DNA of 63,948 nt, filler included, from Collodictyon triciliatum (lineage: Eukaryota): assembly GCA_043381765.1 (NCBI GenBank). It is 5 parts of 5 records of this genome, joined end to end, with 100 filler letters (N's around TTAATTAATTAA, not from the genome) between each part and the next. Parts side by side here need not be neighbours in the genome. Positions count along the whole stretch, not along the records: positions 57,448 to 63,948 come from JBHJMP010001998.1; 4 more parts are not named here. The stretch is one strand, 5' to 3'. Both the position numbers and the translations under genes were made by a program. Each line of letters opens with the position of its first letter. The stretch's first letter is position 1. Of the stretch, positions 34,265 to 63,948 are shown piece by piece. Below the pieces are notes generated by a model, which saw only the letters and a program-made list of their open reading frames with translations, did no database searches and was not told where the DNA came from.

Positions 34265-34468
34265 GCGCCTCCCCTTCTCCTGCCTCTCACTCCACTCCCC
34301 TCCTCTCCTCTCCTCTCCTCTCCTCTCCTTCCCTCCTGCCGGGCCTCTCCTCTCCAACCACATTCTCCCCTGGGACATTCGCACATATAAACACGTCACA
34401 CGTCACACGTCAACTGCCACACACGCGCGCCCACAACCGCTTCTGCCTGACAGGTCGGGTCTGTTTAC

Positions 34469-37580
<3,112 letters not shown>

Positions 37581-38091
37581 CCCTACTTGAAGTTTTGCTA
37601 TTCCTCCAACTCGAGAGAAAAAAGGAAAAAAGAAAAAGAAAAAGAAAAAGAAAAAGAAAAAGAAAAAGAAAAAGAAAAAGAAAAAGAAAAAGAAAAGAGA
37701 AAGAAAAGAAAAAGAAAAATGAAAAATTGAAATACATCTGCTAGTTCGTTCAGACTTCCCCAAGGATAAAAGCCACACGCCACCTCGCCATGATCCCACA
37801 TAGCAAGCCAGACCGCGCTCAACCCACACATATATACATGCGACCGCCGCGAAAGCAGACGGCGATAGGAAAAGGCGAAGTTCCAAAGCCGGAATCGAAC
37901 ACAGGACAGCACGCTCATACCGCCGCAGGGAACACTCCGCGACCAAGGGCCAAGCAGCAGCACCGAGGTAATTGGGAAGATACAGGGTGGCAGACAACGT
38001 CCAAACAAACGAGAAAGAAGAAATGGCTCAGCTATGCGTTTGTTGTTTTTATTGCAGGAGATGAGTCTGCTGGGGCTGCGCAAGGGGGCAT

Positions 38092-43088: not shown

Positions 43089-43320
43089 TCTTCTCTTCTC
43101 TTCTCTTCTCTTCTCTTCTCTTCTCTTCTCTTCTCTTCTCTTCTCTTCTCTTCTCTTCTCTTCTCTTCTCTTCTCTTCTCTTCTCTTGTAGCCACTGCAT
43201 ACTATTTCAAGCCTTGTAATATTTCTCTGTTCTAACAGAAAAAAAAATGTGAAAAATTGGAGTCTAGTCCTTGCTTTATAGGAGGAAACCCGCCACGGGA
43301 CTATCCCAACCCTACTCGAG

Positions 43321-44675: not shown

Positions 44676-44973
44676 ACAAGAATATCGCCACCTATGGCAC
44701 CCCTCACCACACAGTTTATCCCACGCAACAGAACACTTTTATTGAAGAAAAAATCACACTCCACCACCAAGGCCAGAACAAACAAACAAACAAACAAACA
44801 AACAAACAAACAAACAAACAAACAAACAAACAAACAAACAAACAAACAAACAAACAGACAGACAGACAAATAAATAAAAATTAAAAAAACAAACAGAAAA
44901 ACAGACAAATAAAAAAAAACAGAAAACAAACAGAAAAATAAATAAAAACAAACAGACAAACAAACAAAAAATA

Positions 44974-45690
44974 TTAGAAGAAAGAGAAAAAAAAGACAAG
45001 AGCAAGAACCTGGGCAAGAATCTGCGCACAAAGCGGCTGAAGCACATGCAGGAGCGGACGCAGCAGGTCAAGCAGCAGAGCCGAGGGCACAACAAACACA
45101 TGCAGCGCAGCCAAAGCCGCCCCGGCCAAGACGTCGGACAGGAAATGCTTGCCCATCCCCACGCGCGACGCACCCACGGCCACGGCCCACAGCGACACGC
45201 CTGCGCGCAAGGAAGGCGGGACATTGCACAGGCCAAAGAGCCACGCGGCAATCAGCCCCGCCCGCGAAGTGTGGCCCGATGGGAACGAGTACTGATCCGG
45301 CCCGCTGAACGACTCCAGCCCAACGCCCTCGCCATAGGCCGGCCGCGCGCGCCGCACAAGGATCTTGATCAGCCCCACACTCACGCTGTCTGCTGCAAGA
45401 TGGAGCCAGAGCCGGGCCCATGAATCAAACGTCCACAAGTCGCAGACAGAGGCTCTGCTTCCTGCTGCTGTTTGCCACAGTGTGCGCGGCTCCGGTGCAA
45501 ATGCGACTCCGTGCCATACTCCGAAGCAGCCCAATCCCACCCCGAGGAAAACAACCCACGGGAAGCCGGAGTTGCTGTATGTCGTGAGCGCCGTTGCGTG
45601 GAAGACCGCTTTGCTGCCGGACTCCTTCAGAAGCCAGGAGTTGGCCTTGCGGGATAGTCTTGCGTCGAGATTCTTGAGCCACAGAAGCAT
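44974..45690 (-). CDS. PAP2-family membrane lipid phosphatase (PLPP6-like), intronless
   Basis: C1 KILVRRARP, C2 DQYSFPSGH, C3 SRVGMGKHFLSDV. Likely start is MLLWLKNLDARLS. Confidence 0.9.
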   Translation of the reverse strand: MLLWLKNLDARLSRKANSWLLKESGSKAVFHATALTTYSNSGFPWVVFLGVGLGCFGVWHGVAFAPEPRTLWQTAAGSRASVCDLWTFDSWARLWLHLAADSVSVGLIKILVRRARPAYGEGVGLESFSGPDQYSFPSGHTSRAGLIAAWLFGLCNVPPSLRAGVSLWAVAVGASRVGMGKHFLSDVLAGAALAALHVFVVPSALLLDLLRPLLHVLQPLCAQILAQVLALVFFFSFF

Positions 45691-46058
45691 CTTTGTCCGC
45701 GTCAGGCTTTGTCGTTCTTGCGTCTGTTTGTTGCCGATGCTCTCCTTCCGCCTGCCTGCGAGCCATGCAAGGGCGATGTGTTTCGATTCGAGCTTGGAAG
45801 TTGTATTCATGCCAATAATGGTATCATAGATGCGTGCTTTTTGGCTTTTTTTTTTCATGACCGGCCGAAGGAACCGATCGGAAACGTAGCAAGGAGTCAG
45901 TCGTATACGGGCAAGTAAAGAGGAAGAAAAAGAAAGTAAGGAGGCGAAGCACTTAAAGGACAGGATCAAGAAAGATGAAAGATGATCGGAGTGGCGATCA
46001 GCTGCTTTTTGCCCCTCCATGGCGCCCCGCACAAGTCTTGCGCTTGTCTGCGACTGCT

Positions 46059-46773
46059 ATGCGTGGATTTACACTCGGCTTCGCAGCCCAGTTTGCAGCC
46101 AGTTTTGTCGGCGCTTTGTTTCTGCGCAATAGGAGGTTTGCATGGCTCCTCTCAAACTCTGGTTGAATATGTCTTTCGGTCTCAACCATTTACCTTCTCT
46201 CCCTATCCTTTCAAGCGCACTCCACACATCTCTACTCCAATTACATGCCTGACACATATTCTACACCCACTGTTAAGGTTTTAAAAAAAAAAGTTCTTTT
46301 TTGTTTTACTTTTCTTTTTACGTTTGACTTTATGTAAGTAATGAATGCCCCTGTAAACATTCCTGCAAAGCCTTCGAACCCGTCTCCTGATTGCACTCCG
46401 ACGCGGCATTCAGACGGGCCTGCGGATATCTTTCTTTGGGCTCACCTACCAGGCGCTTGTTCTTCTGCTCCGCTCGTTGGTGTTCATCAGGCGAGGCTGG
46501 GTTAACTTTGTTGCCGGCGGAGCGACCGCCGCATTCTGGCTCGGCCAGCCCACCCCTCTGAGCTCGGAGTACAGCCTGTTTGCTTTGCAGTTGATTCTCG
46601 GGGCGCATGTGGCCGAGTGGAGAACGCGCTCGGTTGTAGGCTTCCCTCTTCGGTGGCTTCTGCCTTGCCTCTGTGCCGGCCTTATCATGCGCCAGTTCGA
46701 GCGAGAGCCGACAACCCTGCGCCCGCCCGTCGCAATCGGCATGCAGTACATATACCTCCGCTTTGCAAAGTGA
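46059..46773 (+). CDS. Hypothetical small membrane protein
   Basis: Hydrophobic frames MRGFTLGFAAQFAASFVGALF... and ...LVLLLRSLVFIRRGWVNFVAGG...YIYLRFAK*, separated by an intron-like AT-rich segment. Confidence 0.35.
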
Positions 46774-46939
46774 TGGAACTCGCTGTCACTTCCGGGGGCC
46801 CAGAATCCCGTCCCATATGTATCCCACTTGCTACAGCCATGAAAAAATAAATCTTGAGTCAGAGGCAGACGAGCAGGACGAGGCGTGTGCTTGAGCGTTG
46901 CGGGGTGGGATTTCGCAAGGCTCCAGTGGGCAAAATAGA

Positions 46940-47012
46940 TGCCTCCTCGCGGAATCGAACCACGGACCTTCAGTTTACAAGACTGACGCACTACCAACTG
47001 TGCTAAGAAGGC
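46940..47012 (-). tRNA. tRNA-Thr (anticodon UGU)
   Basis: GCCTTCTTAGCACAGTTGGTAGTGCG TCAGT CT-TGT-AA ACTGA AGGTC CGTGG TTCGATT CCGCG AGGAGGCA forms a full 73-nt cloverleaf. Confidence 0.97.
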
Positions 47013-47060
47013 ATTCCTTACGTGTAGGGAAGGAGTATATAAAATTAAATTATATTTTAG

Positions 47061-47440
47061 TCTGTCCTTTTTTCTTCTGTCCTTTTTTCTTCTGTCCTTT
47101 TTTCTTCTGTCCTTTTTTTCTTCTGTCCTTTTTTCTTCTGTCCTTTTTTCTTCTGTCCTTTTTTCTTCTGTCCTTTTTTCTTCTGTCCTTTTTTCTTCTG
47201 TGCTTTTTTCTTATGTGCTCTTTTTTCTTATGTGCTCTTTTTTCTTATGAGCTCTTTTTTCTTATGTGCTCTTTTTTCTTATGTGCTTTTTTCTTATGTG
47301 CTTTTTTCTTATGTGCTTTTTTCTTATGTGCTTTTTTCTTATGTGCTCTTTTCTTATGTGCTCTTTTCTTATGTGCTCTTTTCTTATGTGCTCTTTTCTT
47401 ATGTGCTCTTTTCTTCTGTGCTCTTTTCTTCTGTGCTTTT
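47061..47440. repeat. 16-19-bp minisatellite (TTTTTTCTTCTGTCC drifting to TCTTTTCTTATGTGC)
   Basis: About 24 tandem units with a graded sequence change. Confidence 0.9.
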
Positions 47441-47529
47441 ATCTTTATCAATCATTTATTTTTGTCTGAGGGGTGATAAGGTAACAAACTCGACCTCTTT
47501 GAACAGGCAAGAATTTATTTCGACTTCTC

Positions 47530-49437
47530 TCCCTCATTTAATACATGGTGCATCCTGACCGAGGAGTCAAATCCGAGGGTCGCTCTCAGCTGGCTGATTA
47601 GAACCTGCCATAAAATAAATCGGTTGGTTTATCGCAGTGACTTTATGAACATTCGGGGAGATTTATTGGATATAAATATTCGCCAAACATCATGGCTCGC
47701 ATGAATAAACAGATTTTTTTTTTACTTTTACTGTCTCCGTATCTATGTCTCTAACTAATCTCAGATTAACACGACCCCTGTCTGGACGCATTGCTAATAT
47801 TACACTGTCCTAAAAAATCAAATTAATAACTACCCCCTGCTACATTAAAGGAGGAGGAAAGCGTTGGTAATTTGTTTGGCTTACTAGCATATTGGAATCA
47901 CATAAATTTTCCCCGATTAATGAAAGGCAACACTTCAACCAAACATCCATAAGGATTGGAAGGCTGTTCTTCCCTGCAATGACCTTTAAATACACACTTA
48001 ATAAGGGGAAATGCGTTCGATAGGAATGGCATGACTATTTGCAGTATATTCATTAAGTTCGCTTTGGATATTTGAATGACCCTTGAAAAAATGCACGCCT
48101 TTAGAAATATTCTAAGAAAATAAGAGAGCGAGAAATACCAATATTTGCAAAACTCCTTACGATTTTTCCTCCAGTCAGTTCCATCTCATCCAAAACTGGC
48201 TGAGTTCCAGAAGGTATTATTCGAATATTGAAATATTTTGGCATCCGTTTGATGTTTGGAAGATTGTTGAAGAACCTCCAAAATCCCTTTTAAAAATATT
48301 GGGTAAGTGGGTAACCGAATATACGCATCTGTCTCAGACGATTGATATAACTTTATGTAGTTAATGAAAACCTCCGCTGTATGAAAAGAGCACACTAAAT
48401 GTACGTGCGCCAGAAATGCAAGAAAAGGAACATTTCTTCTTCTACCCAAGTCGAAATAAGCTTCCCAATGTCTTTCCAACAACACTTCCTGTAAAAAAAT
48501 AATCAATTATTTTTTGAAAGTTGAGTTTATACAAGCAATTTTAATTATATAAAAACTGTCTCGATTGTCTTTCTCGAATTTGAATTAATTTTAAGAAGCA
48601 ACTGCGGGACTCAATGTATAACCATACCTTTGAATCAACAACGTGGTCAGTATTTAACTTGACGGGTGACTTTGTGTTGGACTTTTTCAAAGATGTCGAA
48701 AAGGCATCAATCAATTTGCAAGAGAGCTCATCTTTTTGGAAAACGAGAAACTGCGGTGCATTTTGCAGATGCGGTTCGATAGAATGAGTTGAGTGTGGAT
48801 ATGCGAGAGTCTCGCCGAACCGAGATTCACAATTCTCCGTAAAGAGACACATTTTGGAATCCGATTTTCTTTCGAATGAGATATCTGTATCATTTATTGT
48901 CATCGTTGTTCCACTCTTCTCGACAGATCCATATTGAATATAAGTATTTCTGTTTGTAGTGGAGCTCCAGGCGTTGTCCTGTGTCCAGCGATGTGTCCGA
49001 ATATGAACCCGTGGTGGTGAAGATGAAACGGAGGAGGACGGTGATGTTTCGTTGGTCCTCAAGCTTGGTGAGTATGACAGGGGAGGAGAGATTCTTTGCT
49101 CAATATGTATAGGTGAAGTGTCGTTTTCATAGGGACTGATAAATCCATGGTCGACTTGTAGAAACGCAGAAGTGAGAACCTTGCGATGACCGTCCATTTT
49201 TTCGCCCTCATTCGGCCTTCTCTGAGAAGCTTCTATGTGTCTTGAATCTTCGTGGGTGGATACTACTTCACAAGCACTGCTGGAATCCTCTGCCTTTGAA
49301 GAAACACAGCTTTCATGTTTGCTGAAGGGATCGTTGCTTTTGATTTCTTGGTCCTTGTTTTCAGAAGGTGGCTTCGGCAGGTGAGTTGTTTGAGGATGTG
49401 CGCGCAGAGTCTGAGAACACCGGAGTGAGGCGCTCAT
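47530..49437 (-). CDS. Hypothetical multi-exon protein (Ser-rich N-terminus, helical C-terminus)
   Basis: A long first exon from MSASLRCSQ, plus exon EVLLERHWEAYFDLG...KGILEVLQQ and further short exons. No family recognised; 3' end approximate. Confidence 0.5.
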
Positions 49438-49929
49438 TCGTCGGTGTTGTGTCTTTCTCAACTTTTGAGTCTTTTCTTATCCAAGCTCCTGTGTAGTTGG
49501 GGCGTTGTCAAAGCGGAGAAGCAAAAATTGGCGCGCAGACACAAGCAAACAGAACTTTTCGATCGTTCTTAGATAGATCTAAGGCCATTACGAAAAAATT
49601 CAAGAGCGCATCATGGGATTGGTACCTAAATTACTAAAAAATGTATATTTGGAATGATATGCATTCAATTAGGCTTGAAATATCAAGTATTAAGCTTTTA
49701 AAATCAAATTAAACTAATTTCCATAATTGTCATGTTTTGCCAGTCCAACGTTTACATACCTCCCACCACAACAAAGGCAACGCGCCCAATCAAACACAGG
49801 ATTCTTGTGCCCCAACGCGTTTGAAGCCTGGCCGATCGCCTCTGAGAAGAAGGCCACAGGTTGGAAAACTCTGGTTATTCCCAGCGCTCATGTACCTTAC
49901 AGTCTAGATCCACACCGTATTTCTCTGAG

Positions 49930-51453
49930 ATGCCTCGGAAGGCCAAGAATCCAGACGGGGATGAGGAAGAAGACGAAGGCGATGAGGTGGACTTTTTGCT
50001 TGATGGCGGAGAGAGCGACAAGAGTGAAAGTAGTGGAGACGGTGATGATGACGACGACGACTTTAGTGATGATGGAGGGAAAAGGAATAAAGCTTCCAAA
50101 GGGAAGAAAGCTGCGGCCACCAAAGGAAAGAAGACAGCCACCCCTGAGAAGAAAGCAGCAGCAAAAGTTGCGCCAAAGAAAGGGACAGCCAAAGCCACCA
50201 AAGAGGTGTTTTCTTCTTCTTTTGAGTTGCCTCGTCGTTTTCAGCCGCCGCTTTTTTTTTTTTTTTTGCGCTTTTTCTTCGACTTGACACAAACATCCCT
50301 TTTTCTACCACCTATCGAAGCCTGTCGCCTCCAAGGCAGCAGCCACACCAAAAAGGGGGAGAGGTTTTTATCCTTGAATTCCATTCAACTTTTAATTGCA
50401 GTTATGCAAATGTAATCTGGATACAGAATTTGAATGACGGTAGTTATTTTATATCGCTTTGACTTGAAAAAAATCCATGCAGCATCAATTAAACCAGAAC
50501 AACCATCCGAATCCACAGCAAAGGTGATCAAAAATCATCACTTGACTCACTGATATAGAAGGACTAACGGATATATACTTTTAATTATTTTTATATGTAT
50601 TATGTAGATTAGTTTACTCAATAATCGATTTTTTCTTATTTGTTACAGGCCAGGGGTAGAGCCTCGCTGAAGTCGAAAACAGAACCTGCAGAGGATGATG
50701 AAACGGTTGCTACTGAAAAGGACGGAGAATCGGGATTGGAACCAGACCCACCAATCATAATCGAAGAGGAAGACAGAAGCTCGGAAAGCGGAGTTGATGT
50801 TAGTGCCGATGGAGATGGTGAAGAACAACCTAAAAAGAAGGCTAAGGCAGCGACTAAAACTTCGAAAGTGCGTACATTTTTAGTTGACGACGTGCTCAAT
50901 ATACATCCCTTTGGAGAAAATTAATTATGCTAATTCAATTTCACTTTCTAGGACTCTAAACCAAAGGTTGCCCCTGCGAATGGGGGTCGTGCAACAAAGC
51001 TTTCCACTCCCACCATGTCCCCCACCAAGCCAACTGGTTTAGGTTAGTACGAACGGTGTCGAATTCATCATATTGTGTCACTCAACTAAAAGCGCATATA
51101 TATATATCAGTCCTTGTATAGTTAAACCCCCTTGCACTTTTAATCAAATAAAGGGAGAAATCTTACATATGCATGAATATCTTTGTTTTTTCTACTATTA
51201 CCCCAGGAGGCACGACACCCCGCGCCGGACTCAAGGGTATGTGTCCTACTACTGGGGACTTCAATTAATTAACTTTCAAAATGCAGTCCATATATCGGTA
51301 AGTGCAAAATCTCATTACTCACAAAATTTAATCGATGCAGCATCTGGCTCCTTAAACTCTCCGATATCCGCATCTGGATTGTCGCGACCACCTCGCGTTG
51401 GGCTCTCTCGACGGGCCAACATCCCCTCGCTTCATTCGTCCGGACCAGGATGA
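49930..51453 (+). CDS. RAD51AP1/NUCKS-like acidic/Lys-rich protein
   Basis: D/E- and K/A-rich disordered exons, with C-terminal PRVGLSRRANIPSLH resembling the RAD51AP1 LRLGLSRLARVKPLH motif. Confidence 0.7.
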
Positions 51454-52161
51454 GATTCATGTACTATGTATCATCTCTCTGAGAACAACTTGATTTGTCG
51501 GCAGAAAGTCTATCAGATGTCCCACCAATCTGTTGACCTACAGCGTTTTAATTCTGCAAACAATAAAGCATTCTGAAAAATACGCAACTCGCCGTGTGTA
51601 GAAAGGCTGGAAAAGATTTATGACATATGTGGATAATATATTATATTCAACAAATTATGCATATATTTTACTTAAAATCAAAAATATAATATATATTTAT
51701 GTTGATAATTACAGAATAACAATTATGCGGATATTAGAATGTTCTGCCGAATATCCAGATGCATACATTCACACAGCATGTTACAAGAAATTTGAGGAAC
51801 GAGTGGTCTATTTTCTCAAAGAAAATTACCCAATTAGAACAATCTTTCGCAGCCCGCAACCCACAAAGCAACAAGCAATTTTCGATAGACCCAGGAGCAA
51901 CAAACGCTCTCAAAACGCGTTTCCATTGATACAACCAACCGCTCCAACACCATTCGTGATGTATATTGGCCCAAGCATAAGCATCTTGGTAGACTTCAGT
52001 CAGCACTGGCGCCACAATGAAAGCAACAAGAAGCAAGCCGAACGGACCGGCTGATGAACGTCTCCCGAAAGACTGAAAGAGGCTGATTTGTTTCAGGCTT
52101 GGCTAAGCTGTTTATCGGGGTTGCGTCTCAGCCCAGTCTTGGTTCTCCAGCATTTCCACCT

Positions 52162-52264
52162 AAAACAAAACAAAACAAAACAAAACAAAACAAAACAAAA
52201 CAAAACAAAACAAAACAAAACAAAACAAAACAAAACAAAACAAAACAAAACAAAACAAAACAAA
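52162..52264. repeat. (AAAAC)n microsatellite
   Basis: Direct tandem pentamer. Confidence 0.95.
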
Positions 52265-52800
52265 GGATATTGAACAATCGTTGGAGTATTAGCCAAAGAC
52301 GAACTATGGTTACTTTCCACAATACCGAAGAGAAGCAGAGAGTAGGGGTCTTAACCTGTATGTTCCGAGTAACCCCTGTGTTTCTTGTAGGTTCCTGCAA
52401 CTTTTCTCGTGCCTGTGTCCAACCAAACTCCAAAACACAGACAGGACGCATCCCTCCAATAAGCCAAACCCCTACGGGAAGCAAACTCCACAAACAGCCA
52501 CCAGAGAGCTCTTCTCAAAAGTCACTCTAGAACTTCAAGCTTTTGAAAAAGAAAAATAATCACTATTCGGACCTAACTCTTCACCAGACCCAACGAAGTT
52601 GAACAGGCTTTCATTCCCTGCTGAATATTCTTCTATCCAAGCGCTTGTCTCTCAGGGTTCACACTTCAGCCTCGCTCACTCCTCCTTGCGAAGCTTCCAT
52701 TTTTGATTCACTCACTCTTTCTGGCTGTCCAGTTTGTACATCTGAACATTACTTTAGATTAGCTCTACTGTAAAATCAAAAACCCCCCAATATTTAATAC

Positions 52801-55213
52801 ATGTAAGTTAACATCCATCCAATGTACTCGGTCTACTTTGTCATTCAGGCATGTGTAATATAGTATCATTATGATTATTATCATAACACATTATCTTAAT
52901 TCTATTCTACTTAATACAGGGCTTCTGAAACCCTTTTCCCAACCGAACTTAGCTCGTTGGTAGAGCGGTCACTCCTCTGCCGACCGTGAGTGCTTTTTTT
53001 AAAAAAACTTTCTAAACAAAAATTAAACCTATGGGTGACTAGAAACGCTAGCCACATCGTGTTTGAGCAGAACGGCATATCCTGATAATATCTAATTATT
53101 TAGGAACGCCACCTCGAAGAAAGGCTATTCTCAAGGTAGGTCGAATGAATATTTTTTATCTTTCGGAAGACAGCTTTCGTCTGCTCAAGAGAACTCAAGA
53201 CACCCAACCCAATATTATATTCTGTCCTTCTCTAATACTCAATATCCAAAAGGAAATCTCGGCCGTCACCAAATGGCTTTCCATCATCAAAAGAACTTTC
53301 CTCACACTGATATCCACAACCCTGGCGTGGCCTACGAAGACTCTGAAGGCTTTGATGAAAATCTTTCATTTGACGGAGACGATGAAGATGACGAAGATGA
53401 AGTAGGGTTAATTGCAAAATTGATAATTGAAAATACACATTCTTCTTTCCTCTCAAATCACTACATGCAAAACTATACGCGTGAAGTAATGTGCCTCTAA
53501 ATAGTATTAGATTATTTGTAGTCCACTGAATTGTCTTTTGAAATATGCACTTATGAAATCTAGGATTTATCTGATAGCCAGGACCATGCCTCTTTCTACG
53601 GAGATGACAGCGATATTGAAGATATACCCATCGCAGCCTCCAACGCCATCGAGCTCGACAGCAATAGCGAAGACGAGGTTGTGACAGATGTTGAAGAAAT
53701 TTACGATGATAACGACAGTGTTACAAACAGCGAGGACGATGCATCTATGCAAAATGCGATGAACCCAATCGAATTCGAGACGCACGCACTTTTACAAGCC
53801 ATCCAGTCCCAGATGCAGAGGACCCAGTTCCACAAGGAAGCAGTTGTTCTCCCTTCTCCCAGCGCCGTTCGCTCTATCCAAGCCCCAATCGCCCCTCTCG
53901 GCCAGAAAGGAGGGGCAGAAAGTCTGTCCAACACAGGAACCAAGCCGATAGCCTCAGCGCAGCAGAAGCCCTCAAAGAGCATTGAAAGCCATCCGCAAGG
54001 CAGTATCCAAAGTTCTCTCTTTGAAGCCCCTCGAAAGAGAGTTCGCTCCCAGGAAGACAGGTTAGCTAACATAACTCTCACAACACTTTTGTTGATTTAA
54101 TCGAATTCACCACCCTGAACCCTGGAGTCTGCCAATGTCTTGTTTATTTTTCGTCTTAAATGGGATGCGGTCAATATTTATATTAAGGATGTCCTTTTCA
54201 CGCAAATGTGAAACCTCAAAATCTATAGCAAAACAAAGGTTGCCAAGAAACATCTTCAAGAGGTCGATCCTAGGCGCGTAAGCCTTGTGAAGACCATTCT
54301 GGAAACCCTTCCCCGGCAAAAGCTGAAAGGAATCATGGACATTGTTATGGAAGCGGGCGCAGGAGAAATATTTGAAGATGAGCTAATATTTGGTAGTTTA
54401 TACATTTCACACATTCCATGCATAAAGGTCTTGTCTTTTCATTTTTTCCCTAGTATTGATAATGTCACATATTCTTGATAGTCGCACACCTCTGTTTATT
54501 CGCTGTCCCTTGTTCTTGCTTCCACTTCGAAGACGCTTACTCGTATCGCTCACATTTCCTGTCCGTCTCCATCTTTCTATTCTTTTTTTCTAGATGTTTA
54601 CTCTATGGACGAATGTGTTATCCGGAAAATTGAGCTTTTTGTCCAAGACGACTGCACCGGTTTAGCGAGTCGAAAGTCTGTCGCAACTACGCGGAAGTGT
54701 ATAACAACTATGGCAAATGAAGTCAGCTCCACCTCACGGAAACGGGAACAGCAGCTAGCCACCTCCTCACAAACAAAGCCCTTGTCTTCGTCCACATATC
54801 ACAGCTGCAACTCACCAACCAGCTCACTCGCTTCTGTGGGGTCTTCGCCATCATCTTCGTCGTCACTTTCATCTCCAGTAACTCAGTCCAGAGTGGCACC
54901 AACACGAAGTAAGTCCATGTCTGGTGTAGCTACCCCACGACGCAATCAGCCGTTTACAGCACCAGTCCATGCCACCGACATGAATCTTTCGAGGCCTTCA
55001 GTCCGGTCTGCAAAACAATCTACACAGACGCATATACATCCGCAACCCCAGTCACAGTCAAAGAAGGCCTTGTCAAATGTTAACTCGAAGCCCCGGAAGG
55101 ATGCCACCTTCTTTTCGGAGCATGAAGTGATTGCAATATTTTCCACAAACGAGGTACTCAAGATAAAAAAGACAGAGACTGGCAGTGAGGATGAGATTGA
55201 GGTAGACATATAA
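52801..55213 (+). CDS. ET (extra-terminal/NET) domain protein, multi-exon
   Basis: Spliced VKTILETLPRQKLKGIMDIV...EDELIF/DVYSMDECVIRKIELFV fits the ET consensus. It is flanked by acidic and Ser-rich regions. Confidence 0.7.
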
Positions 55214-55759
55214 AGTCATTTTTCACCCGCTCTCAAGAACAAACGAAGCCCAATAATGAATAAGATGTAGCAACTCCCCAGGGGTGATTGTTTTTCTTTT
55301 TAGACATAATTGTTGATCGCATGCATGATGTCTCTTTCCATTCATAAATCATGCCTCTTTTTCTTCTTCCTCTTGTGTTTTTTTTCTCTTTCTCCACGCA
55401 CTCCTCTTTGCCACTCCCTGTCTTTCTGTCTTTCTCTTTCCCCTGGCCACCGCCCCCACCTCCCCGTTTCATTCTTACTTTGTCTGGAAAATAAAGCTGT
55501 CGTCTGAAACAAATACGGGCGCATACTGTTGCCTGGCTGGTACTAATATCACGCCCGCATAATCCACGATGAGATGTACTTTCAAGTCTCGATTATCGCA
55601 GGCACCTCGTAATGGATTACTGACCAAACAGAATTCATTTCGCAGGTTGTATCTGCCCAACAAGCAAGGCCAGCCGACATGTGATTTCTAGCGTTTATTG
55701 CCTCCTGAGTTCCTCCAGACGGGTCGATACGAGAAGGAAGGGAAGGCACAAATAATACA

Positions 55760-56817
55760 TCATTCAAATTCAGACTTGACAAGTACTGCAAATGACTTTT
55801 GAGCCCGGGCGCTCCTTGGTGCAGCCGCCAAAGTGGCGCCACTGTTTTGAAACTGGATGGAGCCTATGGAGGTGGAGGGATTGAATCGTAACATAAACTG
55901 CACGGATTTAAAATGAGAGGAAATAGAAACGCTACATGAGAAAACAAAAAGAAAACAGGCAAGGAAAGGAACAACAAAATTAAGCAGCCCCAGAAGACAA
56001 GTGACAGGATATGACGCGGCATCAACCAAACAAACCATCACGCGCATCGGAAGAGATGGAGCGATAGTGACGGGTTGGTCGAGAGTACTGATACGTCTCT
56101 GGATGGCCTTGTTGAACAAGGGTAGGGTTATCTTGTCTCTGGGGTTTCAAAGTTCGGGTCTGGGAAAGTGTGGAAGGGTGATTTTGGTGGGAGTGATTGA
56201 TGAGAGGTTCATGTTCGTCAGAAGTGACGACCATGTTGGGATTTGAAAACACAGAGTTTCTTTGCGATGGGGCGTGATGTGATGCAGAGTGACCCTGCTT
56301 CGATCTGGACGTGTTTGGCCATGAGCTTCGAACATCAGAGCCAAGCTCAGGACTTCTCGCTGGGGAGATTGATATGATTGGAGATTTTGTCGGAGACTCA
56401 ATCGTACTGATCTGCTGGGGTACAGAGATGCTGATATGAACAACACTCGATACAGAGGCACAAAAAAGAGCCACAACCAGGGCCAAAGCAAAGAAGAAGC
56501 TTTCTCGGCCTGTGCTATCATAAAAAACATCTGGGTGAGTCTCCACAAAGCGAATTGGGCCGGCATAAATCAGAGCCTCTGCAGCTAGGGCTAGCAAGGC
56601 AGCTATGACAATGGAGATTGCCATAAGGCGCCGTCCTGAGAAGCAGAACGTTGTTGACGCAGCTACAATTGCTAGCGCACTGGTACACATTAAGACAGCA
56701 GTGGCGAGACTCATGCTTACAAAAGCGCGCCTCTCTTTTGGATTGATTGAATATGGCAAGATTCCATCCCCATCTAGGTTATCTCGATACTCGATAGTAA
56801 TCCCATCTACGCGCACC
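55760..56817 (-). CDS. Hypothetical multi-pass membrane protein (claudin/tetraspan-like topology); 5' end lies toward the scaffold end
   Basis: Three hydrophobic helices followed by a Ser/His-rich tail in ORF 56022-56816, with an AG acceptor at its 5' end. Confidence 0.5.
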
Positions 56818-57142
56818 TGAGATTTTTTTTTTGATTTTTCACGAGATTGTTCAGTTTGATTGTTATTTTGCTGAGCACTAAGGTGAAGGAATTAACAACG
56901 AAGGCGCTCAGTTACACATTATATTTTGGGAAAACATCGCATTAGATGAACATGGCATAATTTGGGACACTAGGATTTTTACCCGTGTAAGTGAAAATTC
57001 GTAATGTACGCCAACATCGGAGTCGGCTATTGCAAACGATTGAATAAGAAGTGTCATTAATAGATGAAAGAATTTTAAAGCACAAAAAACAGAGAAGTTA
57101 TAATAGGAAAACTGAAGCTGAAAAGGATATGTAAAGGGTACG

Positions 57143-57347
57143 GATAAAGAAAGATAAAGAAAGATAAAGAAAGAAATAGAAAGAAATAGAAAGAAATAGA
57201 AAGAAATAGAAAGAAATAGAAAGAAATAGAAAGAAATAGAAAGAAAAAGAAAGATAAAGAAAGATAAAGAAAGATAAAGAAAGATAAAGAAAGATAAAGA
57301 AAGATAAAGAAAGATAAAGAAAGATAAAGAAAGATAAAGAAAGATAA
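57143..57347. repeat. (AAAGATAAAG)n / (AAAGAAATAG)n decamer satellite at scaffold end
   Basis: Direct tandem repeat. Confidence 0.95.
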
Positions 57348-57447: not shown

Positions 57448-57720
57448 GATGTCCCGAATGGACTAGAAATTCAAGTATTTGTCTGGATGTTGCCAAATAG
57501 AAATGGAACAGGTGTTCAGCAAATCAGATTTGATTCAGCCAGTCCAACAAATAACGCCTTTGTGCTCAGTTCTAGCGGCACAGGTATTGCACTTGGAGGC
57601 ACAACGTACACTGTCACAGAAGGTACGATGTTTAAAGCTACTAATTTCCGTACAACGATAGGACGATGGATGGTTGATTCAACTCGATTTAACTGTACTC
57701 CTGCTTTAACATCCGCGTAA
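57448..57720 (+). CDS. C-terminal 90 aa of a beta-rich G/T/S-rich viral protein (fibre/spike-like)
   Basis: Open from the first scaffold base: DVPNGLEIQVFVWMLPNRNGTGVQQIRFDSASPTNNAFVLSSSGTGIALGGTTYTVTEGTMFKATNFRTTIGRWMVDSTRFNCTPALTSA*. Confidence 0.6.
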   Translation, partial: DVPNGLEIQVFVWMLPNRNGTGVQQIRFDSASPTNNAFVLSSSGTGIALGGTTYTVTEGTMFKATNFRTTIGRWMVDSTRFNCTPALTSA

Positions 57721-57750
57721 ACAATTCTTATTAATAGTAACAATTGTTTA
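57718..57750. terminator. AT-rich hairpin between convergent genes, incorporating both stop codons
   Basis: TAAACAATTCTTATT-AAT-AGTAACAATTGTTTA: 15-position stem with one C-C mismatch and one T-G pair, and a 3-nt loop. Confidence 0.7.
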
Positions 57751-60700
57751 ATAGATTGCCTGAGAAAGGTTTTTCGGTTTATAACCAAAGACGCTTTCTG
57801 TGACCGGGCCGTACCTCTTGCCTTTTGCCGAAGAGTAATATTGAGCGTCTCGGGCTGTTCCGAAAACGGCCTTTTCACCCCGTGGTCCACTTACGACGTA
57901 ATTCAGGCCCTGTCTGCGGATGACACTGCTTGGCTGTGCGCCTACAAATATAGTGCCCATGTCAGAGTTGACTACTTGCCCCTGGGTCTTGTTGAGGAAA
58001 GTCACACTGCGTCCAGTCACGAGATTGTTGTCGGCGTACTTTGGTTTGTACTTGAGTGGCCAGCTGCCGTCTTTTCGACCGCTTTTAATAAGAGCGTCTA
58101 CCGTGCCTTGAGTGTCGTCTCCACTATAAAAATACTGTATGATCTGTTTCAGTAGTGACGTGTCAGAAGTCAAATCAACATACTCAATGTTAAGCGCTCG
58201 CATTGCGTTCTCAAAAGATTCTGTGCTATCAAAATCATACTCTTCGTTACGCTCCATAACAGCTTCTGTTTCAAAGAATCGTGTAACGTTACGCGCAAAC
58301 CTCGACTGATTTCCGTATTCTCTCTCGTCTCTGACCTGGGCTCTGTTGGGGGCAAAGACGGCCATCTGTGAGCCGAATGGTCCACCAAAGCCGCCTCCGC
58401 CGCCGCCGCCACCGCCACCGCCTCCTCCCCCAAGTCCTACTGGTACATTTGGATTAATAGTTCTAGCTATAAACGGCCCACCACCCGCTTGAGCAAAGTT
58501 TGCCGGCATTGCTTGTTGAGATCCTACTTGTGCTCTTTGTGACATATTAGGAGCAGGATTTAAATTTTGTGGCTGAACTGGTTGTTGGACTGGCTGTTGG
58601 ACTGGTTGTTGTTGTAAGGCAGCGAGTTGTTGATTAGCTAAATTAGCTGCATTTTGGGCTAACTCGGCATTTCTTGTTGCGTTGGTTAAATTAGCAAATA
58701 GCCGATTATTCTCTTCAGTTAGCCGAGTGACTTCTGCTCTCTCAGTTTGTAAGGCAAGATTGGCCCTGTTTGATTTAAAGTTTGCTCTAGCTTCATTTGC
58801 TCTGATAGTTTCATTTTTGGCAGCATTTTCAAACTGGCTTCTTTGTAATTCCAGATTTAGACGGGCATTTTCTTGTTCTAAATTTTCTTTTTGAGTACGC
58901 AAGTCTTGTAATTCAGCTTCTTTTCTGGCAGCTGTACCCCGGTCACCTAGTTGTGCCTGTGGTCCAGCTGCTTGTCTTTGAGCTGCTTGTAATTGAGCTT
59001 CAAGTTTTCTGACCTGTAATCTCGCAGCTATTAGTTCTCTGTTACTTTCTTGTACCCTCTGCGGCGATATGTTAGCAATTGGTACAGGTTGATTATCTGG
59101 ACCAAAAAGATTAACACGAGTACCAGTCCTATCAGCAGGTTCCTGAATACGTACTCTTCTTCGTTCAATAATTTCTTGTTTTGTTTCGGCTGACATTTTT
59201 GGCTTCCACCGAACCATAGCTTGCGATGAGACCGATGTTGTATCTGCGGGTTGTTGTTCAGTTGGATCGGCTGTCTGGCGTCTGCGCTGGCTATCATCAA
59301 TACGCAAGCTATCACCATAAGCTCTTGTTTCATCATCAATGGGAATTAGGTCTACTGCTCCAGGTAGTTCTCCAGGCGCATTGCCGGAAATCTCAGGTTG
59401 TCTCAGAGGTTCTGGTACTGTTGCATTTCCGAAAAAAGGTTTTTGTATCGCAGTAATTTGTTGTACTTGACCGCCTGCACCTTGTGTGCCTTGTATAAAT
59501 AATTGTAGAGTGTCGTCGTCTTCGTCAGCCATGATTGCGTCATTTATTTGATCATCTCCAATTCCCACAGGAGGTCTGGGCGCAGATTGTGTTAACAATG
59601 TATGTGTCAAATCAAAGATTTTATATTGTAGTTCACCAAACTCGATACGTGCGTAATAAATCCACTCTGCCATCTCTTCTTTTTCAGGGTCTTCTGTTGC
59701 GATGATTCCATTCAAGAATTCGATTGTTGCTTGTGCTTCTTCAAGAGCTGTGTCGGGTACATTGGGTGCCTCTAGTAATAACTGAAGATTTTCTATCTGC
59801 GCTTTGAGCTCATCAATATCTTCTTTTTGAGCCCTTTCTGCTTCGGCCATCTGTACCATCTCATCCATGCGCTGTTTGACTGTCTTTACCTTCTTACCTA
59901 TTTCTTTTGGCGCTCTTTCATCGACTCTAAATGTAACTCGTTTCTTTTCTTTTCCTTTGAATGGTGTCTTACTGATAGACATCATAGGACTGGTAGCTAT
60001 TTCATTAAATACCCTGGGAGGTGACTGACGTGGGGTCATAGGACTAAGTGCTATAGAATTGAGTTGCGCAACAGCTTTGCGTGGGGTCATTTGCTGCATC
60101 TGTTGTCTAATTTCTCTGATTCTTTGTTGGTAGCCTTGATGTAGATACTGTTCTCTGTGCTCTGAATCCTTGACTAACGTTTCTAACATTTCTTTGAGTC
60201 TTTCGGAACTCATATCAGATTGTGCTCGTTCTTGTAATTGCTTGGCGAGTTCCTGAATCATAGCATGCTTTCGCTTTAGTTCTTCGTATTCTTTTTTGAG
60301 GGCGTCTCGTTCTTGTACGACTTGCTCGATATCAAAAGACGTGTTTTGCTCTTGTGTTGTTCGTAGGGTCGGGTCAGATTGGGCACTTGCTTCAGAACGA
60401 CTTAATGTTGTCTTGGGTCTGGGTTGTAAAGGCGCTCCGGGTTTAGCAAAGTCACCGCTAAAATTGCGCCCGCCTATTTGTGTTACGGGTCTGACAGGAG
60501 ACACAATAGGAGTTGCTGGTGTTGATTGTACAGGTGTAAAGATGGGTGACTGTGCGGCTGTGAGGTACCCGCCTTGATCGTCAATTCCGGTTGTGTCTGG
60601 GTCATCTGCGTTAACTTGGATGGATGTGTCTAGTGCGCTTTCGAAAGAGATATTCCGACTAGCGACATTGGAAATCAAAGATTGAAGAGAAGTGTCAAGT

Positions 60701-62751
60701 TGTCGTGAAATTTTCTTGGGTGTCAGATGGTCATACACCAGAAACTGTTGATCGAGGATATCGAGTTGTTGATCCAGTAGATCAGCATAATCGTTTAATA
60801 GCAAATCGATCTGTTGTTGTTCTGCGTCTTCGGCCAATTGTTCGACAGCTGCCACACGCACAGCGGCACGTTGTACTTCTGTAAGACTGTTTATCAATGC
60901 TTGTTGATCTCCCAAGAACTCATTTAATGTTGGCTCAATTCCTGGTGATGGTCGGATTTTATTTACTGCTTCCAATTGTTTGCGCAGATTAACAAGGTCT
61001 AATTGTTTTTGAAAACTCAGCGGGACCACGTCACTTCGTACTCCGTATGTTTCTAATTGCTGTTGTAGTGTTTCAAGCTGTGCAGTAAGCCCAGCTATTT
61101 CTTGTTGCTCTGGATTTGTTTTTACTATTGTAGTCAGTAGTTTTTGTTCAGCTAATGCCTGTTTTTTCTGTTCTCGTTCCAATGCTTTTTGCTTTTCAGT
61201 TTCTTCTTGTTTCCTTTTTGCTTCTTCGCGCTGTTGAATACGTTTTAAGCGACGCAGGTCTTCTTCATGTTGTTTAGTTTTCTCTGAATACAATTCTTCG
61301 ATAGCTAGCCTATTAAGCAAAAGAGTTTCGATGGTGGCATAGTTGAAAGGTAAATCAGTTAGACCTTCTTCAATCATTTCATGAAAAGCCACCAACACTT
61401 GTTCTCCACCAAAATGCTCAACGATCATATCGTCAGCTTCTGTTAAAACTTCAGTGGGCGCATCAATCGACGGCAAATCACTGTACTTGATTAACCCTCT
61501 GTCCCGTAGCTTGGCTAGAATTCTGTTGGCGATGAAATGTAAATGGTCGGGCTGTGCTGTGCCTCTTTTACGTAATTGTAGGTAAGGAATGAGAAACACT
61601 TCTTTGTTCCGCATGTATTTCCGTCGTAAGTCATTTCTCCGTTGTAATACTTCGTCTTCCGTGATATCAGGCTCCCATTCACCTTCTTCTTGTTGTTCTT
61701 CTTCTTGTCTCACTGGAACGTCATCACTTTCCGGAGGTGCTGGGCCAGCCGATTGAGCAAACGGCAGCGTAGCCGATTGGACATTTGCAGGTTCAGTTTC
61801 CTCTGGACCAAACACTTTGTTGTAAAAGTTTATTGCTATCTCAATAGCCTGATCTTCGTTGTCTGAAACCTCAAATCCAAATACATTTTTTAACCACAAT
61901 CTTGTATTACGTTCTGATTGTCCAAATGTATCCAGTAACCAGTCTATCTCTTCATTGGCTAATTCATAAGAGCCGAATTTGTCTATTGCTATACGGTTCC
62001 ATGCTGCATTAATTTTATTAGGTCTATCAGGTTCAGGAGCAAACAATGTAGGAAAGTATCTGTATGTTTTTGCCAGCGACGTAACTTTTAAAGGTTCTGG
62101 ATTTAAACGGTCAAATAAGCTCAAGTCTTCGTCGTCGTATTCTTGGTAATAGTCGTCGTCGTCTTCGTCAGAACCCACGTTTATTATTTCTGCAGGTTTT
62201 CGACGTTGTCCAGATGTAGGGGCTGCTGTTGCAGTTGAGAGCTGTGACTCTTCACCGGGTGAACGCACTTGAACTCTCTTGGGTGTGGGTGCCTGAGTTG
62301 AAGGTGGTGCTTCAGGGGGGCCATCGATTTGCGAGGGTTTTTGTTTTCTCAGTGCTTCAGGAATTTCAGGGACGGGCCTAGAAGACTCTGCCCATGCTGT
62401 TGCTAATCTTAATCTAAGAGTTTTATTATCAGGTGGTTTACCTTGTCTGATTCCATAGACTTTAGAAAAGTATTCCTCATTGTAATTTTTTTCGGCCACT
62501 TCTTGCGCGTTTTTAATAGTCCCATATTTAGTAATGGCGATTTCATTTATAATCGCAGCAGATAGGTTTCCAGTGTGGGTTTTTTCACCGTATATAAACC
62601 TTTTAATTTCTGGAATAAGAAGTACCTGACCTGATGTGGCCGCTGATGTATACATCGTTTCAACAAACTCGGTAACTTGTTTTTTTCTCTCTGCTGCCTG
62701 TTCTGCTGTATTTCTTGCTACAGCCAGTTTTCTTTTAGGTGGTGAGCTCAT
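57748..62751 (-). CDS. Giant intronless orphan coiled-coil protein (~1667 aa)
   Basis: 5004-nt uninterrupted ORF from the first ATG (MSSPPKRKL). It has Q/E-rich heptad segments, QQPV repeats and a poly-Gly tract. Confidence 0.9.
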   Translation of the reverse strand: MSSPPKRKLAVARNTAEQAAERKKQVTEFVETMYTSAATSGQVLLIPEIKRFIYGEKTHTGNLSAAIINEIAITKYGTIKNAQEVAEKNYNEEYFSKVYGIRQGKPPDNKTLRLRLATAWAESSRPVPEIPEALRKQKPSQIDGPPEAPPSTQAPTPKRVQVRSPGEESQLSTATAAPTSGQRRKPAEIINVGSDEDDDDYYQEYDDEDLSLFDRLNPEPLKVTSLAKTYRYFPTLFAPEPDRPNKINAAWNRIAIDKFGSYELANEEIDWLLDTFGQSERNTRLWLKNVFGFEVSDNEDQAIEIAINFYNKVFGPEETEPANVQSATLPFAQSAGPAPPESDDVPVRQEEEQQEEGEWEPDITEDEVLQRRNDLRRKYMRNKEVFLIPYLQLRKRGTAQPDHLHFIANRILAKLRDRGLIKYSDLPSIDAPTEVLTEADDMIVEHFGGEQVLVAFHEMIEEGLTDLPFNYATIETLLLNRLAIEELYSEKTKQHEEDLRRLKRIQQREEAKRKQEETEKQKALEREQKKQALAEQKLLTTIVKTNPEQQEIAGLTAQLETLQQQLETYGVRSDVVPLSFQKQLDLVNLRKQLEAVNKIRPSPGIEPTLNEFLGDQQALINSLTEVQRAAVRVAAVEQLAEDAEQQQIDLLLNDYADLLDQQLDILDQQFLVYDHLTPKKISRQLDTSLQSLISNVASRNISFESALDTSIQVNADDPDTTGIDDQGGYLTAAQSPIFTPVQSTPATPIVSPVRPVTQIGGRNFSGDFAKPGAPLQPRPKTTLSRSEASAQSDPTLRTTQEQNTSFDIEQVVQERDALKKEYEELKRKHAMIQELAKQLQERAQSDMSSERLKEMLETLVKDSEHREQYLHQGYQQRIREIRQQMQQMTPRKAVAQLNSIALSPMTPRQSPPRVFNEIATSPMMSISKTPFKGKEKKRVTFRVDERAPKEIGKKVKTVKQRMDEMVQMAEAERAQKEDIDELKAQIENLQLLLEAPNVPDTALEEAQATIEFLNGIIATEDPEKEEMAEWIYYARIEFGELQYKIFDLTHTLLTQSAPRPPVGIGDDQINDAIMADEDDDTLQLFIQGTQGAGGQVQQITAIQKPFFGNATVPEPLRQPEISGNAPGELPGAVDLIPIDDETRAYGDSLRIDDSQRRRQTADPTEQQPADTTSVSSQAMVRWKPKMSAETKQEIIERRRVRIQEPADRTGTRVNLFGPDNQPVPIANISPQRVQESNRELIAARLQVRKLEAQLQAAQRQAAGPQAQLGDRGTAARKEAELQDLRTQKENLEQENARLNLELQRSQFENAAKNETIRANEARANFKSNRANLALQTERAEVTRLTEENNRLFANLTNATRNAELAQNAANLANQQLAALQQQPVQQPVQQPVQPQNLNPAPNMSQRAQVGSQQAMPANFAQAGGGPFIARTINPNVPVGLGGGGGGGGGGGGGGFGGPFGSQMAVFAPNRAQVRDEREYGNQSRFARNVTRFFETEAVMERNEEYDFDSTESFENAMRALNIEYVDLTSDTSLLKQIIQYFYSGDDTQGTVDALIKSGRKDGSWPLKYKPKYADNNLVTGRSVTFLNKTQGQVVNSDMGTIFVGAQPSSVIRRQGLNYVVSGPRGEKAVFGTARDAQYYSSAKGKRYGPVTESVFGYKPKNLSQAIY

Positions 62752-62783
62752 GCTATACCCTAGATTTTTATCTGTGCCCCAGT
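62752..62783. promoter_or_regulatory. Candidate 32-bp bidirectional viral promoter
   Basis: Central AGAT-TTTT-ATCT places ATCT exactly 10 nt before the ATG on both strands. Confidence 0.6.
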
Positions 62784-63143
62784 ATGATTGTAAATTACGC
62801 ACAACGAGGAGCACGAGGGGTAGGGCGATTTCTTACTACATCAACTGACAGAGCGATACGACGACTAGAGGGACTCAACAACGCATATGTGAAACTCGAC
62901 GATGCCAGCATGGGACTGGTCGACAATTTATTGACGAGCACCGGAGTGAAGCCCGCCATCCAGACTATCACCAATCCCCTGGTCAGCACTATCAAGGCAG
63001 CCAATTACCTGGGTAGGGGGCTGAGCACTTTGGGAGACCTGGACATCAAAAAAATGAATACAAAGAGTTGAGGATCTGGCATTCATGACCTGGGGCAGGC
63101 TTATGCGCTGGCCACTCACGGGAGAGAATTGAGATTTAGGTAA
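62784..63143 (+). CDS. Small basic amphipathic viral protein (95 aa, or 119 codons through an internal TGA at 63069-63071)
   Basis: MIVNYAQRGARGVGRFL...KKMNTKS*GSGIHDLGQAYALATHGRELRFR*. The second stop lies in the element's TAAACAAT end motif. Confidence 0.6.
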
Positions 63144-63462
63144 ACAATGCAGATCCCCTGTTAATGTCCTGCGAATCCCCCAGAAGAAAATGGGCATTCG
63201 GGTGTTCCCTTACTTCTTTTAGTCTTGTACCTCTTTGCAAATGTCCTGCAAATCCTTACTTACAAATCCTTAAAATATAGAAAGTCGATGGATAAATATA
63301 CCCTACCCTACCCAATTTCATCTAGGGTAGGGTCCAATTAATAGAATAGTTTGGAGGGCCCTAAAAAGGGACTTGTGCAATAAGTAAAACACAGAGACAT
63401 GCCAGTGCCCATTTTATTCTGGGGGAGTGCGTTTGATCTGAAATTAATTTCTTGGCATATGC

Positions 63463-63948
63463 ATGGAGTATCCTAGCGAGGCAAAGTACATGAAGATTCG
63501 GAACTACAATGATAAAGTTCTGGCCCGTCACACCACCAAAGTAACCCCATTCAATGGCGGAACATTCGGCCCTACCCAGGTTGACTGAATCCTCTGGAAC
63601 ATACCCTCGGAGACGGGGATGGAAATAGACATGGACACGTTGATGATTCACTTTGACGTCACCATTAATCCATCAGCGGGGACAGCTGGCACATACGATT
63701 ATTATTTTAACAACTCGATTGAATCAATTATTCAAGCACTTCGGATCAGAAAGGGAACGTCTTTTTTACTCGAAGATATACAGCGGTATAACTACCTCGA
63801 TTCAATGTTTATGAACTACGTGGCGGACGACTACAACAAGTGCGTGGGTGCAGCGACGATGGGAATCGGAGATGCGTTTGAACGAATCAGGAATCATAAA
63901 CAAGATCAAAATAACTTGGCTTCTGCTCTAGTTGCAAGAAATTATGCG
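63463..63948 (+). pseudogene. PLV-type major capsid protein (double jelly-roll), N-terminal 162 codons, with an in-frame TGA at 63586-63588
   Basis: MEYPSEAKYMK..RHTTKVTPFNGGTFGPTQVD*ILWNIPSETGMEIDMDTLMIHFDV...FNNSIESIIQALRIRKGTSFLLEDIQRYNYLDSMF. The pattern P-x-NG-x-TF-x-P / I-x-[FW]-x-IP / D-x5-F / S-x-I-x2-LRI / LEDI-x2-YN is recognised from PLV capsids. Confidence 0.8.

Follow-up and report, generated by a model that had tools for sequence, protein, structure and literature searches.

Why one very long open reading frame (ORF) stays uninterrupted beside two viral genes that each carry a stop, and what its product might do, is the question raised by a 63,948-nucleotide stretch of DNA (hereafter the window) from the Collodictyon triciliatum assembly GCA_043381765.1. 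The window consists of five pieces (1-14264, 14365-28627, 28728-42988, 43089-57347 and 57448-63948), joined by four spacers of the form N44-TTAATTAATTAA-N44, of a six-frame-stop type, and the finding is therefore confined to the last one, a viral piece of 6501 bases. The other four measure 14264, 14263, 14261 and 14259 bases, and all five are probably individual contigs of a single assembly, ordered by length. The big ORF lies on the minus strand at 57748-62751 and fills 77% of this piece, rather than the third of a viral scaffold given in the original prediction; searches of the other four pieces with the viral genes returned no tblastn and no blastn match. At the level of sequence, its product (P0001) belongs to a family, its gene occupies a fixed site in a capsid module and has promoter-like and hairpin signals in common with its neighbours, and the protein joins a hypervariable N-terminus to a constant C-terminus. 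Each of these points bears on whether it might be a late protein of a polinton-like virus (PLV) that travels with the particle.

The protein and its family

The description of P0001 as an orphan fails, because a profile of its C-terminal domain, run against 1.84 billion representatives, found 13 true relatives among 15 hits. The two spurious hits were a 6458-aa tandem-repeat protein and a fasciclin protein, and in P0006 a close relative is read with a frame shift. The domain stands at the exact C-terminus in 12 of the 13 members, where it ends in ...KNLSQA(I/V)Y. A word-based search brought up P0002 (1523 aa), with 74% identity to P0001 from residue 363 to residue 1667, and P0003, with 47% identity across the final 215 aa. 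Seven members measure 1014-1448 aa, and the whole family ranges from 467 aa (in locus L010) to the 1667 aa of P0001. These proteins thus make up a conserved, clade-specific family which, judged by its sequences, is so far unannotated.

Only two blocks are conserved relative to P0001. One, residues 363-501 (61249-61665, minus strand), is common to P0002, P0003 and P0004; the other is the C-terminal domain, residues 1461-1667 (57751-58371, minus strand, ending ...KNLSQAIY), the core of which (1516-1667) is found in all members. Identity to P0003 and P0004 is 47-48% over residues 1461-1667, and distant members keep the core, so that the compact C-terminal domain proposed earlier is a real conserved unit. 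Its last 115 aa are basic, with an isoelectric point (pI) of 9.7-10.2, in all 15 sequences compared. At the other end, the hypervariable N-terminal region, residues 1-362 (61666-62751, minus strand), carries a PPKRK start, small helical units and an acidic run; no homologues of it were found among shorter proteins, and residues 1-363 matched no Pfam family at E<=5, SAP included.

The ORF is intact, as first described, and runs from ATG to TAA over 1667 aa, in a span where the other two minus-strand frames hold 89 and 142 stops. Its start codon is backed by a homologous MSSPPK... start in locus L001 and by a promoter-like motif at the family's usual distance. The predicted protein has a mass of 187 kDa, a pI of 5.1 and no Cys. 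Every motif listed in the original prediction could be located: PPKRK at residue 4 (a PPKRK-type basic start also occurs in L001 and L004), IALSPM at 900 and IATSPM at 918, MTPR at 888 and 905, QQPV at 1381, 1385 and 1389, 17 Ser/Thr-Pro (S/T-P) sites with clusters at 735-751 and 889-929, and a Gly run at 1440-1457. Both duplications, IALSPM/IATSPM and MTPR, lie in the S/T-P cluster of residues 886-931 (59959-60096, minus strand), and the QQPV repeats and the Gly run in a Gln/Pro/Gly-rich linker, residues 1383-1460 (58372-58605, minus strand). The several long coiled coils that had been proposed are borne out by nine coiled-coil-like segments, 426 residues in all (the longest of them spans 1270-1382, within the longest heptad-type stretch, residues 1231-1382, 58606-59061, minus strand), as called by a crude heptad rule of our own making and not by a published predictor. 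A membrane protein was considered and rejected, as the maximum 19-residue hydropathy of P0001 is 0.89 and no membrane-type segment is present.

The statement that no enzyme motif could be recognised, and with it the term non-enzymatic, agrees with all our Pfam and PDB-sequence searches: Pfam gave no family for P0001 at E<=0.01 and sub-threshold noise only at E<=5, and PDB sequences matched through the Gly linker only. Named coiled-coil families (MAD, FPP, Rab11-FIP3 and others) scored far below their cut-offs (FPP, for instance, 18.4 against 40), and such sub-threshold matches reflect coiled-coil composition only. Beyond these, the family members have neither a name nor a Pfam family, although one lineage (P0015/P0052) gave a near-threshold SAP match that stays below its cut-off (24.4 bits against 26.3). 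The 15 C-terminal domains had no Pfam match at E<=1, AP2 and integrase-arm domains included. The IMG/VR copy searched gave no relative with P0001, P0052, the family alignments, the capsid-like alignment or a degenerate C-terminal peptide pattern; a metagenome scan with our first family alignment (A1) gave no match, and a phage collection gave none for P0001, the capsid-like protein or the ATPase discussed below. The family is not described in the accessible parts of PMC12220804, PMC7805220, PMC4642659 and PMC6459981, a scope outside which lie Fig. S6 and Table S6 of PMC12220804, which might show a similar architecture. Nor is it described in the accessible parts of the preprints 10.1101/2022.07.28.501842, 10.1101/2025.10.09.676808 and 10.64898/2026.06.19.733378, the supplements of the PLV framework preprint, which may classify the capsid group, again lying outside that scope.

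Gene order and expression signals in the capsid module

The big gene is flanked on both sides by viral genes on the plus strand. Downstream of it, the last 90 codons of a spike-like gene (57448-57720), rich in Ser, Thr, Gly and Asn, are cut by the contig end; the fragment is 42-43% identical to the C-terminal end of an 807-aa protein of locus L005. On the other side stand a small conserved ORF of about 119 codons (62784-63143) and the first 162 codons of a capsid-like gene for a protein of about 520-540 aa (63463-63948), also cut by the contig end. The capsid-like gene is the best conserved, and its product has many homologues at 58-95% identity. One of these homologues and P0002 are both found on 8688-base contigs.

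A metagenome scan with the capsid-like protein yielded 11 loci, in 8 of which upstream DNA is available, and in all 8 a long ORF diverges from the small ORF. This divergent ORF is recognisably a member of the big-protein family in five of them (L001, L003, L005, L008 and L010); that of L006 resembles the L008 N-terminus only, and those of L004 and L009 resemble nothing. In L005 and L010 the order is A32-type ATPase, 116-aa basic protein, 254-266-aa protein, spike-like gene, big gene, small ORF and capsid-like gene. The ATPase of L005 matches Pox_A32 (E 2.4e-9, 37.4 bits against a cut-off of 22.8) and phrog_2666 (9.5e-15); this evidence comes from a relative, the piece in the window ending before that gene. 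The PLV context assumed in the original prediction is supported, through these relatives and their sequences, because the genes next to the ~520-aa capsid-like gene keep their order and L005 carries a packaging ATPase. Contigs with family members and capsid-like homologues reach 17,067-17,215 bases, and the big gene, at 4.2-5.0 kb, would take up roughly one quarter of the relatives' genome (24-29% of ~17 kb). PLVs are recognised by genomes of ~14-40 kb with terminal inverted repeats, and no such repeats were seen in the viral pieces examined.

The remaining structural assignments are less firm. DJR-like_dom was matched weakly (E 0.012) by 1 of 31 members of the capsid-like family, and the capsid-like profile had no hit among PDB sequences. 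The 254-266-aa proteins of L005 and L010 are penton-like by eye only and found nothing in Pfam, PHROGs or PDB. L010 seemingly holds two penton-like copies in tandem (1-267 and 284-1081). Beyond the ATPase of L005, a partial ORF (1-423, minus strand) contains a ...YWDLDMVNAHF... stretch and has no family match; it may be the start of a replication gene.

The spike-like gene bears on the possibility that the big protein is itself an external fibre or decoration protein, docked on the capsid by its C-terminus and carrying on a coiled-coil stalk an N-terminus that recognises the host or a giant-virus particle. PLVs commonly encode proteins longer than 1000 aa that carry fibre-like domains, according to the accessible text of PMC12220804, and P0001 is like them in being very long and modular with one variable end; a stalk of varying length and a hypervariable tip would also suit a fibre. 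Unlike the fibre-like proteins described there, however, P0001 has no Peptidase_S74, collagen, laminin-G, adenovirus-fibre or phage tail-repeat domain, and offers instead coiled coils, disorder and a C-terminal domain outside any family. By Pfam, Peptidase_S74 (PF13884), collagen, laminin-G and tail-fibre repeats were absent from P0001, 14 homologues and 15 C-terminal domains. Disordered Ser/Thr/Pro-rich and acidic stretches would moreover be unusual for a shaft. The spike-like protein, which is probably beta-structured and 807 or 359 aa long (L005 3016-5439; L010 1131-2210), is encoded separately, adjoining the penton-like gene in L005 and L010, and the end of its gene lies in the window. The fibre role therefore seems to be taken, and we consider a fibre improbable.

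The genes of the module also have flanking signals in common. A motif [AT]5TCT ends 10 nt (once 11 nt) upstream of the ATG in 16 of 22 gene starts drawn from the viral piece and the loci L001, L003, L005, L008 and L010, and in all three starts of the window; as a background, 3-8% of 35-nt windows hold [AT]5TCT anywhere. The six exceptions comprise the big genes in L005 and L008, the ATPase of L005, an L010 penton-like gene, a start in L003 (which may be mis-set) and the partial ORF of L005. In the 32-bp spacer between the big gene and the small ORF, the near-palindrome AGATTTTTATCT (62762-62773) places the motif 10 nt before both ATGs and so serves the big gene on the minus strand and the small ORF on the plus strand, and the capsid-like ATG has its own copy at the same distance (63445-63452, plus strand). 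In the accessible part of PMC8547959, the late promoter of Cafeteria roenbergensis virus (CroV) and mavirus is TCTA flanked by AT-rich sequence. Our motif is similar in that almost all genes have, directly ahead of them, an AT-rich run and then TCT[A/G/T], but it differs from that promoter (PMC8547959, same part) in its fixed distance of 10 nt from the ATG and its varying fourth base.

At the opposite end of the big gene, an AT-rich hairpin (57718-57750) covers both convergent stop codons and is a candidate 3'-end signal for the spike-like and big genes. It is more stable than most shuffled sequences (z = -2.37, with 3 of 200 shuffles equally stable), and matching hairpins are clear in L005 (~5440-5472) and L010 (~2208-2242) and weak in L003. 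Mimiviridae transcripts end at hairpins, as far as the accessible text of PMC4402537 goes, and the hairpin at the 3' end of the big gene is similar to those signals. Taken with the promoter-like motif, this suggests that the big gene may be expressed together with the capsid genes by a transcription machinery of giant-virus type, and the likeness to a late promoter hints at a giant-virus helper. The viral piece contains no copy of the mimivirid early motif AAAATTGA, Rfam and ARAGORN found nothing there, and a scan for bacterial promoters and terminators was uninformative (8 found against 10.2 expected).

Divergence along the gene and the stops in its neighbours

The big gene evolves very unevenly, and its front end differs sharply from the adjoining genes. 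In a comparison of the window with L001, the small ORF proves identical at 117 of 119 residues, with a nonsynonymous divergence (dN) of 0.008 and a synonymous divergence (dS) of 0.318, and the start of the capsid-like gene at 154 of 162 (dN 0.032, dS 0.423); the big protein, over its first 150 aligned residues, agrees at 64 positions only (dN 0.501, dS 0.763). The N-terminal region is 40% identical to L001, against 95% in the adjoining genes. Since its dN of 0.50 exceeds even the dS of the neighbours (0.32-0.42), this would reflect diversifying selection or else an exchange with some more remote lineage. Identity between P0001 and P0002 also changes by segment, from at most 32% (residues 1-350) through 30-66% (351-650) to 84-100% (651-1100), then 64-78% (1101-1400) and 90-100% (1551-1667), a pattern which we read from the alignment as a mosaic. 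The GC content at third codon positions is 0.25-0.34 over residues 1-1460 but 0.50 in the C-terminal domain, a value in line with the 0.53 of the small ORF and the 0.52 of the capsid-like gene. A hypervariable N-terminus would be compatible with the earlier idea of a host- or giant-virus-interfering factor.

Environmental sequences provide a second view of this variation. Among the matches listed, 20 metagenome runs from 16 studies share words with the ORF (shares of 0.07-0.27), and four of them (X1-X4, from three studies) were compared, comprising drinking-water, lake-water and freshwater metagenomes. Their short contigs cover 27, 20, 16 and 18 of 30 ORF bins, and uncovered parts, such as 60920-61136 and 62222-62655, carry no weight. 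Records at least 99% alike number 4 of 32 in X1, 0 of 25 in X2, 0 of 8 in X3 and 2 of 17 in X4; fresh water therefore has close variants in circulation. In two contigs the small ORF and the spacer match the window, but the sequence diverges at the 5' end of the big gene (loose ends at 62746 and 62782). The spacer at 63143-63428 is variable as well: about 285 bases are missing from L001 and from one X1 contig, and L002 has other filler there. This insert holds a 30-nt inverted repeat (63176-63205/63397-63426), a (TACCC)3 run and an 18-nt hairpin.

The original prediction that two neighbours carry stops was confirmed, and both stops are in-frame TGA codons, one in the small ORF (63069-63071) and one in the capsid-like gene (63586-63588). 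At each of them the aligned relatives have a sense codon. The frame of the small ORF is conserved downstream to a shared TAA, the capsid-like column is invariant among nine homologues aligned, and an environmental contig from X1 has a sense codon at that position. A reading of TGA as a sense codon was rejected as unlikely, because TGA terminates genes of relatives in the usual way (the ATPase of L005 and the 266-aa gene of L010), and the codons of the big ORF include 8 TGG and no TGA. There are thus 2 stops in 369 neighbour codons and none in the 1667 codons of the big ORF, and both would land in the neighbours by chance with a probability of 0.033 when codons are counted, or 0.023 when weighted by one-step nonsense paths. 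With two stop events only, this suggests that the big ORF may still be needed or still be selected.

Two further explanations have to be weighed here. The first is that an endogenous viral copy is decaying and the host keeps this one frame open, for example as a defence against the virus or its helper. The distribution of stops just given (p ~0.02-0.03) would suit such an exaptation, and so would the company of the contig, as the first four pieces of the window are eukaryotic in look, with PAP2, inositol monophosphatase, a weak carbonic anhydrase match, tRNA-Thr and microsatellite ends. Both ends of the 6.5-kb piece, however, lie within viral genes and so give no evidence of integration. Its viral promoter-like motif and hairpin are intact, fragments at least 99% alike in two of the four metagenome runs suit a circulating virus, and the stop events are only two; we therefore hold exaptation to be very unlikely. 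The tRNA-Thr gene (anticodon TGT) lies in the fourth piece at 46938-47013 (minus strand), beside long CTTTT/GAAAG-type microsatellites. The second explanation, that the frame is a leftover which has no present function and is intact by chance, could draw on the low dN of the neighbours, which suggests a recent inactivation and little time for mutations. Against it stand the conditional probability of 0.023-0.033 and the conservation of the gene in every related locus with enough DNA, and of all the explanations considered we give this one the least credence.

What the protein may do

Our preferred reading, which we hold tentatively, is that the big protein is a late, virion-associated adaptor, with a C-terminal anchor and an N-terminal specificity end, possibly matured by cleavage. 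It would be a lineage-specific late protein of a small freshwater PLV, elongated, soluble, non-enzymatic and modular, in which a fast-evolving N-terminus, the second conserved block, Ser/Thr/Pro-rich disorder, coiled coils, the Gln/Pro/Gly linker and a basic C-terminal domain of 150-210 aa follow one another. Made alongside the capsid proteins, it would travel with the particle. The C-terminal domain could then serve as a constant anchor on the capsid interior, on the packaged DNA, or on both, and the variable N-terminus could provide specificity or an effector function towards the host or a helper giant virus.

Known structural proteins offer a partial parallel. Scaffolding proteins and capsid-docking decoration proteins carry a C-terminal coat-binding domain, and the big protein resembles them in being elongated and helical with a constant C-terminal end that could dock on the capsid; unlike them, it varies 3.5-fold in length between relatives. 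A tape measure or size-setting scaffold was accordingly rejected, the relatives spanning 467-1667 aa.

A possible cleavage of the protein is suggested by an xQ(I/L)GGxN island, PVTQIGGRNFSGDF (residues 755-768, 60448-60489, minus strand), a candidate Gly-Gly-X processing site within Ser/Thr/Pro-rich sequence. The motif xQ(I/L)GGxN(F/V) aligns in all six lineages compared (P0001, P0002, P0003, a variant in P0004, P0007 and P0008), at 41-50% of protein length and amid otherwise unalignable Ser/Thr/Pro-rich sequence. In 10 family proteins [QK][IL]GG occurs 5 times, whereas 500 shuffles gave 0.64 on average and never more than 3. The QIGG-type motif presumably resembles the C-terminus of SUMO. Core polyproteins of African swine fever virus (ASFV) are cut after Gly-Gly in Gly-Gly-Xaa by a SUMO-protease/adenain-like enzyme, one substrate peptide being KVGGNETQ, in the accessible text of PMC7178854. 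The big protein is similar to ASFV pp220/pp62, as presented there, in being a very large, predicted late protein, with a conserved hydrophobic-Gly-Gly-X, of a virus presumably of the double-jelly-roll lineage, and the candidate cleavage sites QIGG/R, QIGG/N, KIGG/G and QLGG/G of the family may be set beside KVGG/N of ASFV; it is unlike pp220/pp62, which are cut by pS273R (PMC7178854), in having no sequence homology to them. A conserved Gly-Gly-X site in a predicted exposed stretch, as in polyproteins cut by adenain/Ulp1-like proteases, is thus apparent in the alignment. That a cysteine protease of Gly-Gly-X type, from the virus or from its helper, cleaves the protein after QIGG and perhaps also within the Gly run is conceivable, and we would put it forward with more doubt than confidence.

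Another non-enzymatic role deserves mention, in which the protein would not be structural and would act as a genome adaptor, its C-terminus binding viral DNA, its coiled coils oligomerising and its N-terminus tethering the complex to host chromatin or to the helper's factory. We take this logic to be that of the herpesvirus episome-tethering proteins. The tail basic in all 15 sequences, the near-threshold SAP-type match of one lineage, the PPKRK-type basic start (shared with L001 and L004), the acidic run, the S/T-P clusters and the hypervariable N-terminus would all fit it, and by eye the tail IRRxGLNYVV...GKKxxFGSAxDAxYF presumably recalls DNA-binding domains of three strands plus a helix. 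On the other side, Pfam found no AP2, integrase-arm or SAP domain in P0001 or the C-terminal domain at E<=1-5, and the gene lies inside the capsid module with a promoter-like motif as in the capsid genes. We consider such a genome adaptor unlikely, if less so than a fibre.

Several observations weigh against the virion-associated adaptor that we prefer. Its association with the particle would follow only from gene position and shared signals. The C-terminal domain has no meaningful match in Pfam, PHROGs or PDB sequences (best PDB E 0.12), and hhalign gave it a probability of 0.15% against the penton-like and 0.07% against the capsid-like proteins. The range of 467-1667 aa among viruses with similar capsid-like genes counts against a size-setting scaffold, and the start resembling a nuclear localisation signal, the S/T-P sites, the acidic run and the near-threshold SAP match would equally suit DNA or nuclear work. 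The argument from retention has n = 2 events, and the low dN of the neighbours also fits a recently broken copy. Finally, Pfam and PHROGs revealed no protease family in the partial loci. Processing at QIGG therefore stays a lead, and the polyprotein of the original prediction gains a single hint, the conserved xQ(I/L)GGxN resembling Gly-Gly-X protease sites. We know of no protease in this virus group.

A more far-reaching scenario, which we regard as a long shot, would combine these elements: a virophage-type PLV would encode a quarter-genome adaptor polyprotein, whose new basic C-terminal fold sits on genome or capsid, whose two halves are set free at a QIGG site of SUMO-protease type and whose hypervariable N-terminal cassette chooses the helper or host to be exploited or blocked, and the frame would have been kept open in a broken, possibly endogenous copy as it still acts, for instance as an anti-giant-virus factor.

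To conclude, our results point to one unannotated family that would make up ~24-29% of a ~17-kb genome and whose position is conserved across the clade. The fixed-distance motif and the 3' hairpin of nearly all genes offer a testable link to a giant-virus helper. If QIGG is indeed cleaved, protease-driven maturation would extend to a PLV group in which it is undocumented. With one constant and one very fast-evolving end, the big protein is therefore a good candidate for a determinant of host or helper-virus specificity in this clade.

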